Of a DNA stretch of 64,000 nt, positions 18,473 through 19,163 are shown one piece after another. This stretch comes from a bacterium (GTDB taxonomy: Bacteria > UBA10199 > 2-02-FULL-44-16 > DYJF01), in assembly GCA_041739675.1 (NCBI GenBank), contig JBGSNL010000039.1, forward strand, positions 9,927 through 73,926. The letters run 5' to 3'. The notes under the pieces were generated by a model that saw only the letters and a list, made by a program, of their open reading frames with translations, searched no databases and was not told where the DNA came from. A program made the translations under genes and the position numbers. Each line of letters begins with the position of its first letter. The first letter of the stretch is position 1.

Positions 18473-18476
18473 CAAT

Positions 18477-19163
18477 ATGGCGGCATTCGATCGCGACAAA
18501 TTCATCTCCTTCATTCTGGATAACGGCGTTGTGGGTTTTTTCGATCAGCCGATCACGCTGAAATCAGGCCGCAAATCTAACTGGTACGTGAATTGGCGGA
18601 CGGTCACATCCGACGTCTTTTTAACGGACAATCTGGCCGATTTTCTTATCGCTTTCGCCTCCGAACTGGGGATCAAGTACGACGGTTTTTTCGGCGTCCC
18701 CGAAGGCGCAACGAAGATCGCGATAATCTCAAGTTACAAGTGGGCGAGAAGCCAGCGGGGCTACAGGGCAGGCAGCCACCGACTTTCCATGGGGCGGGGA
18801 AAACCCAAGGAGCACGGCGCGCCGAAAGACAAGTATTTTCTGGGCGAGCCCCACGAAAATGTCATCATTGTGGAGGACGTGACAACGACCGGCGGCTCGC
18901 TTCTCAGTACCATAGATTATCTGAAGCAGGCCGGTTCGAATGTTGTCGCCGCTATAGGGCTGACGAACAGGATGGAGCTGGATAACGATAAGAGAAGCGT
19001 CGCCGATGCTGTCGCAGCAAAGGGAGTAAAATATTTTGCGATGAGCGAGGCGGCCGACATCCTGCCCGAAGCCGTGGCGCGCTTCAATCCGAAAGCTGAA
19101 ATTGTGAAGGCGATAGAAAAAGAGTTTGAGGAGTTCGGCGTCAAACCTTTGAGGCTAAAATGA
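18477..19163 (+). CDS. pyrE: Orotate phosphoribosyltransferase
   Basis: ITLKSGRKSNWY, PRPP-binding IIVEDVTTTGGS; adjacent to pyrF. Confidence 0.88.
   Translation: MAAFDRDKFISFILDNGVVGFFDQPITLKSGRKSNWYVNWRTVTSDVFLTDNLADFLIAFASELGIKYDGFFGVPEGATKIAIISSYKWARSQRGYRAGSHRLSMGRGKPKEHGAPKDKYFLGEPHENVIIVEDVTTTGGSLLSTIDYLKQAGSNVVAAIGLTNRMELDNDKRSVADAVAAKGVKYFAMSEAADILPEAVARFNPKAEIVKAIEKEFEEFGVKPLRLK

Follow-up and report, generated by a model that had tools for sequence, protein, structure and literature searches.

The window analysed here, a stretch of 64,000 nucleotides, belongs to a metagenome-assembled genome (MAG) from a hot-spring metagenome (G000; 1.91 Mb in 88 contigs, 94.6% complete), the closest labelled relatives of which are Bdellovibrio sp. 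and Bdellovibrionota MAGs. Within the window, the heptamer CAATATG at 18473-18479 joins the gene for tRNA-Leu(UAA), the sole gene with that anticodon found in the G000 assembly, to pyrE. ARAGORN placed this tRNA at 18386-18473, and an acceptor-stem check, in which 7/7 pairs were formed, assigned 18465-18471 to the 3' strand of the stem and 18472 to the discriminator A. CCA is not encoded; the discriminator is followed by C-A-A-T and then by the pyrE ATG at 18477, and the start thus lies 4 nt past the tRNA, as the initial annotation had stated. Further downstream, pyrF overlaps the pyrE stop codon (ATGA) and hpt begins 9 nt past pyrF, ahead of a convergent gene. The features of the unit are as follows.

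18250-18278, + strand: candidate promoter of the tRNA-Cys/tRNA-Leu/pyrE unit, TTGACG (18250-18255), 17-nt spacer, TAGAGG (18273-18278)
18298-18370, + strand: tRNA-Cys(GCA), first gene of the unit (ARAGORN); the Cys-Leu-pyrE gene order is conserved in the taxonomic order
18386-18472, + strand: tRNA-Leu(UAA) (ARAGORN and 7/7 acceptor pairs), no encoded CCA
18473-18476, + strand: 4-nt spacer CAAT; C74-A75 is kept in 27/35 tRNA genes
18477-19163, + strand: pyrE, 228 aa (profile and orthologue alignment), without a Shine-Dalgarno site or a promoter of its own
19160-19864, + strand: pyrF (OMP decarboxylase), start overlapping the pyrE stop
19874-20392, + strand: hpt (hypoxanthine phosphoribosyltransferase), last gene ahead of the convergent gene

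The pyrE open reading frame encodes an orotate phosphoribosyltransferase, with a TIGR00336 match from residue 15. Its N-terminus was aligned residue for residue, from residue 1-3, with those of about 20 orthologues in the order, whose codons differ synonymously; the conserved pattern is M-x-x-F-D/N-R/K, then F-x-x-F-x-L-D-N-x-V-V-G-F-F. No in-frame ATG, GTG or TTG was found 5' of the pyrE ATG before a stop codon. The 20 nt 5' of the ATG, which comprise T-arm and acceptor stem, contain no GGAG, GAGG or AGGA, in agreement with the earlier claim that the tRNA acceptor stem fills the Shine-Dalgarno position of pyrE.

No terminator was found by scan between the tRNAs and pyrE, and a strict consensus scan returned no promoter-like site in 17900-20500, the interior of tRNA-Leu included. 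The candidate promoter ahead of tRNA-Cys is a putative feature read by eye; it fails the strict scan because its second hexamer ends in G. L011 and L012 show partial conservation of this promoter region, and a second hexamer of the same TAK type occurs 5' of tRNA-Val as well as in relatives' glnB promoters. Judged from this arrangement, the two tRNAs and the pyrE message are very probably co-transcribed.

The same layout had been noted at thrS and cysE, and it was recovered at both genes, 4 nt and 3 nt past the discriminator, respectively, with homology-supported starts.

45002-45030, + strand: candidate promoter of the tRNA-Val/thrS unit (TTGACA, 17 nt, TAGTCG), just past a strong terminator at 44953-44979
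45049-45122, + strand: tRNA-Val(GAC), discriminator at 45122, then CAAA (45123-45126)
45127-46869, + strand: thrS, GTG start at 45127; heads the thrS, rplT, pheS, pheT, ihfA array
51425-51859, + strand: MerR-family gene, after ihfA; stop codon 4 nt ahead of tRNA-Pro
51864-51938, + strand: tRNA-Pro(GGG), between two protein genes, discriminator at 51938, then CAG (51939-51941)
51942-52616, + strand: cysE (serine O-acetyltransferase), ATG at 51942; mnmA next

In this array, pheS, pheT and rplT were named by size and order only. The GTG of thrS aligns with the ATG of its orthologues (M-T-E-K-G-D-K in relatives). In the cysE open reading frame, residue 8 corresponds to position 1 of the TIGR01172 profile, and the upstream ATG is therefore taken as the start. 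An internal in-frame ATG of cysE, with AAGAGGA 7 nt ahead of it, was considered and rejected; AAGAGGA encodes conserved K-E-D residues, and the family domain would be truncated. Around tRNA-Pro(GGG), the scans detected neither a promoter-like site in 50800-52030 nor a terminator-like site in 50800-52800; between tRNA-Val and thrS, too, neither kind of site was detected.

The distances from tRNA to coding sequence were then considered for G000 as a whole. Of the 35 tRNA genes counted in the assembly, 8 abut a start, 2-8 nt past the discriminator or 1-4 nt past an encoded CCA, when homology-supported or long-ORF starts are counted. Random positions would give 0.11 such starts (Poisson P about 6e-13), and the 8/35 tRNAs with a start within 8 nt in this genome exceed what chance would produce. 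The eight junctions are listed below.

tRNA-Leu(UAA) to pyrE: 4 nt after the discriminator
tRNA-Val(GAC) to thrS (GTG): 4 nt after the discriminator
tRNA-Pro(GGG) to cysE: 3 nt after the discriminator
tRNA-Pro(CGG) to glnB: 2 nt after the discriminator; PII profile positions 1-112 matched over residues 1-112
tRNA-Ser(CGA) to dnaX: 3 nt after the discriminator; the ATG opens DnaX at profile position 1
tRNA-Ala(GGC) to tkt (GTG): 1 nt after CCA
tRNA-Ser(UGA) to PBP1B (mrcB): 4 nt after CCA
tRNA-Arg(CCU) to a 216-aa C39-like protein: 8 nt after the discriminator

Three further junctions of G000, at uppP, secE and an MsbA-like gene, have spacings of 11-23 nt. Several open reading frames that begin right past a tRNA but extend across the following tRNA or a terminator were discarded as spurious, namely that after Gly(TCC) in G000 and, likewise, those after Tyr, Arg(TCT), Glu(CTC) and Pro(GGG) in the relative G018. 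The gap is 8 nt or less in 45% of the co-directional ORF pairs of G000, and tight spacing itself is therefore ordinary for this genome. What is unusual about the junctions is that the upstream neighbour is a tRNA, which has neither a ribosome-binding site nor a terminating ribosome to offer. With tight spacing as the norm, the junctions could also be neutral by-products of compaction, a point against the mechanism proposed below. Punctuation by tRNAs is not a general rule for the mRNAs of G000; it concerns 8/35 tRNAs and 8 of about 1500 genes.

The conservation of the junctions was assessed among genomes of the order, and for glnB also in class-level outgroups. The synteny of tRNA-Cys, tRNA-Leu(UAA) and pyrE is maintained throughout the order. 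Five genomes have the pyrE ATG 1-5 nt past the discriminator: G000, its congener G001 and G002, which belong to one family, and, from a second family, G014 and G018. The ATG of G018 comes immediately after C74, and its A is position 75. Ahead of the ATG, these five genomes leave no space for either a ribosome site or a promoter. In the remaining genomes, the distance from the tRNA-Leu 3' end to the pyrE ATG is 18-107 nt. All six relatives with spacers of about 45-107 nt carry a purine-rich ribosome site 5-11 nt ahead of the pyrE start. The site reads clearly as GGAG or GGGGA in five of the six and is weak in G013. This relation between ribosome site and spacer length is the pattern expected if the abutted genes had moved to a leader-independent mode of initiation. 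Among the genera and families that keep junctions, PyrE identity is only 49-73%. The T-arm of tRNA-Leu reads TTCAAT in some of the abutting genomes and TTCGAT in others, and therefore no special internal promoter is conserved; the tRNA-Leu sequence is near-identical in relatives whose pyrE lies 47-107 nt away.

A second comparison was offered by glnB. In 12 relatives, this gene is preceded by a conserved promoter, GTGGACA-N14-TGnTA, which ends 6-12 nt ahead of the ATG, and has no ribosome site, an arrangement of the leaderless type; several of these relatives have tRNA-Pro(CGG) 61-189 nt upstream. The promoter is absent from G000, where tRNA-Pro(CGG) stands in its place, 2 nt from the ATG. The glnB genes of the class-level outgroups have ordinary AGGAG sites. 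The junction of tRNA-Arg(CCT) with a gene of about 210 aa is common to three genera, with a distance of 8 nt in G000 and 3 nt in G018, and in G002 a single A serves both the encoded CCA and the ATG. The thrS, cysE and mrcB junctions, by comparison, are specific to G000, the corresponding gaps in G001 being 84, 80 and 452 nt, and G004 has an independent Val-thrS abutment of its own. Abutted tRNA genes amounted to 8 of the 35 tRNAs read in G000 and, in a partial survey, to 2-3 of 28 in G002, 2 of 33 in G018 and 0-1 of 34 in G007. Taken with the division into G000-specific and shared junctions, these counts argue that junctions arise through deletion of tRNA-proximal spacers, are commonest in G000 and, in some cases, are long-lived.

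Given that the abutted genes have no ribosome site, the initiation signals of G000 as a whole are of interest. Their use was assessed by positional enrichment, the 16S 3' end being absent from the MAG. About a third of the unambiguous starts have a ribosome-site motif in a positional peak at -11 to -8, and Shine-Dalgarno initiation is therefore in use in this genome; about half or more of its genes are without a clear site. In 18 genes, a TTGACA-like hexamer, a spacer of N16-18 and TANNNT end 6-9 nt ahead of the start, against a background of about 0.5 per position, a geometry that is predicted to put the start of transcription on or next to the start codon. This promoter class matches the conserved glnB promoter of the relatives, and G000 appears able to translate leaderless messages. 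Folding of the would-be mRNA 5' ends was uninformative (z-scores of 0.4, -1.9 and -0.8). The first 7 nt of the would-be pyrE message were predicted to be unpaired, and the acceptor stem still forms in the predicted fold of the tRNA-Leu-pyrE precursor.

Not all of the abutted genes start with ATG; thrS and tkt have GTG starts, and TTG is apparently used at the Arg junction of G018. In the systems studied, GTG and TTG are weak or inactive as leaderless starts. For mycobacteria, PMC4633059 states that leaderless translation needs ATG or GTG at the very 5' end. A cut after N73 would leave 1-8 extra nucleotides, and under the mycobacterial rule such short leaders might therefore be translated poorly. 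A cut after C74 or C75 could give a 5'-terminal AUG only in G018, at pyrE, and in G002, at the Arg junction.

Considering that the proposed messages would depend on the maturation of tRNA 3' ends, the tRNA genes and the processing machinery were surveyed. C74 is present in 35/35 tRNA genes of G000, of which 27 read N73-C-A without CCA and 8 encode CCA; among the relatives, C74 was found in 79 of 81 distinct tRNA genes and C-A in 50. Because 27/35 tRNA genes are without CCA, a CCA-adding enzyme is needed, and a profile match for one lies in the window.

36471-37937, - strand: CCA-adding/repair enzyme, 488 aa, PolyA_pol head and HD domain

A bacterial type A RNase P RNA was detected (192.8 bits, cut-off 100), which presumably acts on the pyrE transcript. 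The RNase E/G family is represented by one gene in G000, and RNase PH was not found in this genome apart from a weak match inside PNPase. Canonical RNase Z fell below the TIGR02651 cut-off in G000 (94.6% complete) and in all 22 genomes of the order, and it is present in four class-level relatives. A weak candidate is a conserved MBL-fold protein, 278 aa in G000, which scored 64 bits against a cut-off of 293; against solved RNase Z structures its E-value was about 1e-4, and a cyclic-nucleotide phosphodiesterase matched about equally well. Maturation of the E. coli type, in which a downstream cut by RNase E is followed by exonuclease trimming, could place the cut within the coding region and destroy the message, and in this respect speaks against the mechanism. 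In P. acnes, which is also without RNase Z, dRNA-seq as described in PMC3848588 places cuts between the two Cs of CCA, with repair by nucleotidyltransferase. It may be speculated that a cut after C74 would leave a pyrE leader of 3 nt in G000 and an exactly leaderless message in G018.

Collectively, this evidence is consistent with the following scheme. The genes for tRNA-Cys, tRNA-Leu(UAA), pyrE, pyrF and hpt would form one transcription unit, read from the promoter ahead of tRNA-Cys, and RNase P and a 3' endonuclease would cut the tRNAs out of the shared transcript. The cut at or just past the tRNA-Leu 3' end, after N73 or C74, would at the same time make the 5' end of the pyrE-pyrF-hpt mRNA, and the resulting pyrE message would have a leader of 0-4 nt and no Shine-Dalgarno site. 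Its translation would follow a 5'-end-dependent route of the leaderless type, as it seemingly does for other genes of G000. The folded acceptor stem would block the place of ribosome binding until the tRNA is removed, and processing would then precede translation, which may thus be gated by it. The same scheme could hold for thrS, cysE, glnB, dnaX, tkt, mrcB and the C39-like gene. The junctions themselves are suggested to have originated by loss of intergenic DNA 3' of tRNAs in a compact genome and to be tolerated because the genes need no ribosome-binding leader.

We assign a probability of about 0.6 to the full chain, in which the tRNA 3' cut makes the pyrE mRNA 5' end and translation then proceeds without a leader and without a Shine-Dalgarno site. 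The initial annotation had suggested that tRNA 3' processing creates a near-leaderless mRNA and gates its translation, in a manner reminiscent of mitochondrial punctuation. The anatomy, the conserved start and junction, and the confinement of Shine-Dalgarno sites to relatives with long spacers all fit that suggestion, but the likeness to mitochondria fails on RNase Z. It is only partly supported, because canonical RNase Z was not found and because the 1-8 extra bases stand against the mycobacterial need for a 5'-terminal start.

Other explanations of the layout were weighed. A separate pyrE mRNA might arise from a promoter inside or overlapping tRNA-Leu, so that the tRNA would be no part of the history of the message. 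The promoters of the order seem to tolerate a poor second hexamer (TGnTAK), and a consensus scan such as the negative one across 17900-20500 could miss one; the T-arm TTCAAT (18454-18459) is loosely -10-like. The scans of the three junctions gave no promoter-like site inside the tRNAs, a finding that would have told against the earlier reading. A start from the T-arm would, however, give an acceptor-stem leader of 10 nt or more that has no ribosome site, abutting genomes differ in the T-arm element, the relatives with pyrE 47-107 nt off have practically the same tRNA sequence, and chance promoters would be required in eight different tRNAs, all of which makes this origin of the message quite unlikely. 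As -10 elements, TTCAAT and also CACAAT, directly ahead of the ATG, were rejected for wrong spacing and lack of conservation. It is likewise conceivable that ribosomes initiate internally, independent of a Shine-Dalgarno site, on an unprocessed or partly processed tRNA-pyrE precursor, whether S1-assisted or through an A-rich standby site, which would render tRNA processing irrelevant to translation. The large share of G000 genes without a clear site (about half or more) speaks for such initiation, as do the unpaired 5' nucleotides predicted for the would-be message and the finding that G001 has no obvious ribosome site at thrS, cysE and mrcB despite spacers of 80-450 nt. A 30S subunit occupies some 15 nt 5' of the start codon, and at this junction those nucleotides belong to the T-arm and the acceptor stem of a stable tRNA, a stem that is formed in the precursor fold; tRNA precursors are, moreover, normally short-lived. 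Internal initiation on the precursor is thus judged unlikely.

The junction may instead be a neutral or slightly harmful by-product of deletion, with pyrE poorly expressed or with each precursor yielding either tRNA or mRNA, not both. G000 is very compact, most of its junctions are recent, as the gaps of 84, 80 and 452 nt ahead of thrS, cysE and mrcB in G001 illustrate, and, without RNase Z, a downstream RNase E cut with subsequent trimming could eat the start codon. Such a by-product would hardly be expected to behave as these junctions do; those of Leu-pyrE and Arg(CCT) persist across genera and families in which PyrE is 49-73% identical, the genes concerned are single-copy and essential or central (thrS, dnaX, glnB, pyrE), and the start codon and N-terminus are intact throughout. 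We regard a by-product as a poor prospect for these reasons. That the true pyrE start lies 3' of 18477, or that the layout is an artefact of assembly or annotation, is highly improbable. An in-frame GTG does occur at pyrE codon 19, and cysE has its AAGAGGA 7 nt ahead of an internal in-frame ATG; yet a search for a downstream pyrE start with a Shine-Dalgarno site of its own, another finding that would have told against the earlier reading, was negative, the GTG being without a ribosome site. Residues 2-18 of PyrE are conserved, the family profile begins before the internal codons, and the cysE motif is accounted for by its conserved K-E-D codons and by profile position 1 at residue 8. In the source run, the Leu-pyrE junction is internal to a 14.9-kb contig; it is spanned without an indel by contigs of two other runs, one from a wetland and one from sediment, and it recurs in five independent MAGs in addition to the contigs of these three runs. 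It is not an assembly artefact.

Excision of tRNAs as the source of the message 5' ends thus remains the preferred reading for the eight junctions of G000, and a wider form of it can be put forward tentatively for the order, although we consider that form doubtful as a whole. An endonuclease other than canonical RNase Z would read the tRNA body and C74-A75 and cut after C74, the CCA enzyme would complete the tRNA, and the cut would free a message starting no more than 3 nt from the start codon. Punctuation would then be a regular and evolvable way in which free-living bacteria with compact genomes express housekeeping genes from stable-RNA promoters, replacing a promoter (glnB) or a leader (pyrE) and coupling nucleotide synthesis, aminoacyl-tRNA synthetases and replication genes to tRNA output. 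The order-wide lack of canonical RNase Z and the invariant C74 raise the question of which nuclease makes the tRNA 3' ends.

If the preferred reading is right, tRNA promoters would drive pyrE, thrS, dnaX and glnB; the junctions of G000 leave no room for the classical leader controls of thrS and pyr genes. The mechanism would be expected to arise repeatedly wherever intergenic DNA is lost. Should RNA data agree, 5' ends made by tRNA excision and leader-free translation would be open to free-living bacteria and not an organelle oddity. In annotation, such starts will be misplaced by gene callers that insist on a ribosome site or on a minimum distance from a tRNA.

A full-text literature search, with few subscription journals, gave no account of free-living bacteria in which genes of the leaderless type abut tRNAs. 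The present case adds the layout in a Bdellovibrionota-like lineage; the two natural experiments of pyrE (ribosome site versus spacer length) and glnB (promoter versus tRNA); the census of candidate leaderless genes in G000 itself; and, alongside the C74-A75 signature, the lack of canonical RNase Z throughout the order. Punctuation by tRNAs in mitochondria and leaderless mRNAs in bacteria are each textbook knowledge.

Among bacterial systems, the thrU-tyrU-glyT-thrT-tufB operon of E. coli joins tRNAs to an mRNA across a spacer of about 100 nt that has its own ribosome-binding site. It resembles the G000 unit in its shared promoter and in an mRNA freed by tRNA processing, which for G000 is proposed. 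Unlike tufB, pyrE of G000 has no leader with a ribosome-binding site; the relatives with spacers of 47-107 nt do have one. Cleavage as a source of leaderless messages has been put forward for the toxin MazF as well, in a proposal that was later disputed. According to PMC4681348, which cites Vesper et al. 2011, MazF cuts in E. coli were proposed to make leaderless mRNAs. As in the scheme for pyrE, an endonuclease cut just 5' of the AUG would yield a translatable leaderless message; the MazF system is stress-induced, toxin-dependent and ACA-specific, whereas the structure of the tRNA would define the proposed pyrE cut, which would be constitutive. The leaderless mRNAs of Actinobacteria and Deinococcus, with mycobacteria as treated in PMC4633059, are like the proposed pyrE mRNA in having the start at or near the 5' end and no Shine-Dalgarno site. 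In contrast to these promoter-made messages, the pyrE mRNA would owe its 5' end to cleavage, with a monophosphate or hydroxyl and not a triphosphate, and may carry 1-8 extra nucleotides.

The closest likeness of layout is with animal mitochondria, the tRNA punctuation of whose transcripts was reportedly set out by Ojala, Montoya and Attardi in 1981. The subject is reviewed in PMC3790967. As in mitochondria, tRNA genes of G000 flank protein genes directly and on one strand, excision would set the mRNA end, and the mRNAs would have no Shine-Dalgarno site and a leader of a few nt at most; the MerR gene, tRNA-Pro and cysE, with gaps of 4 and 3 nt, place a tRNA between two protein genes in the mitochondrial manner. 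Unlike a mitochondrial genome, that of G000 belongs to a free-living bacterium, measures about 1.9 Mb and has promoters, terminators and Shine-Dalgarno sites at many genes, and the layout concerns no more than about a quarter of its tRNAs. Also in contrast to mitochondria, a canonical RNase Z, the counterpart of ELAC2, was not found in G000, there is no sign in this genome of stop codons completed by polyadenylation, and the tRNA processing at its junctions is putative. If the proposed scheme is true, this lineage would offer a bacterial example of the mitochondrial punctuation layout, with a bearing on the origin of that layout.

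The base directly after the tRNA discriminator (position 74) was tallied over the whole source genome and loci L072-L220. It was C in all 35 tRNA genes of the source genome and in 79 of 81 distinct tRNA genes of class-level relatives. C74 was followed by A75, without CCA, in 27 of the 35 source-genome genes; 18473-18474, 45123-45124, and 51939-51940 are the examples in the window. Given this pattern, and since canonical RNase Z was not found above the cut-off in any of the 22 genomes of the order, the sequences point to a tRNA 3'-end pathway of an unusual kind.

Two of the tRNA genes that end a few nucleotides before a start codon belong to one array.

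Genes of the thrS-cysE array
Window 45049-52616, same strand, tiny gaps: tRNA-Val, thrS, 113-aa ORF, rplT-size, pheS-size, and pheT-size ORFs, ihfA, MerR-family gene, tRNA-Pro, cysE, mnmA

Only 4 nt lie ahead of thrS; therefore, a classical thrS operator or T-box leader cannot fit there.

Among relatives of the order, the trailers of tRNA genes and the spacers that separate a tRNA from the next gene consisted of heptamers or octamers in tandem array (AGTTGAA, GTGGGAA, GAGTCAC, AATCACT, and ACGTACCA), often preceded by CAGT. The source genome carried no such repeats at its abutments. Elsewhere in the source genome, a 21-nt AU-rich hairpin spacer (CAAAA, TTTTGCGCRGCAAAA, AA) was present in identical copies, only two in all.

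Repeats and hairpins 3' of tRNA genes
L076, L078, L240-L250, L263 (relatives of the order): tandem-repeat trailers or spacers
G007, G009, G011, G017, G019 (other genomes of the order): tandem-repeat spacers 5' of pyrE, thrS, and dnaX
Source-genome contigs C34, 26749, and C72, 23298: 21-nt hairpin spacer

Both hairpin spacers lie directly 3' of a tRNA gene (Gln-UUG and Leu-CAG), and each is followed by a ribosome site and then a gene start 33-40 nt from the tRNA. The spacer may act in processing or in attenuation.

The glnB genes of family f2/f3 relatives (alignment A2: L106-L116, L124, L128, and L129) shared a strongly conserved GTGGACA-N14-TGnTA promoter that ended 6-12 nt 5' of the ATG, and no ribosome site was found before glnB at these loci. 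The alignment suggests a leaderless PII message conserved in these relatives, and a promoter of the extended -10 type with a weak 3' half.

The PyrE of the order (window 18477-19163) scored under the bacterial pyrE cut-offs. Its closest relatives outside the order were mostly DPANN and Asgard archaeal MAGs (45-59% identity), and this PyrE type was absent from class-level relatives. On these grounds, pyrE looks like an old inter-domain acquisition, possibly transferred together with the adjoining archaeal-type pyrF.

A conserved gene follows tRNA-Arg(CCT).

Gene 3' of tRNA-Arg(CCT)
L005:348-998 (source-genome contig C74); L264; L234

Its product of about 210 aa carries the motif N-T-x-D-G-x-x-C-[FY]-Q-A-A-L, and its match to Peptidase_C39 was only faint. 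Judged from its sequence, this protein represents an uncharacterised papain-like family.

CCA is encoded by eight tRNA genes of the source genome, including a tRNA-Met (contig C41, 13178-13254) whose first acceptor pair is mismatched, an initiator-like feature. Initiator tRNA genes tend to template CCA, according to published work (PMC5143459), and the encoded CCA of this initiator-like tRNA-Met fits that tendency.
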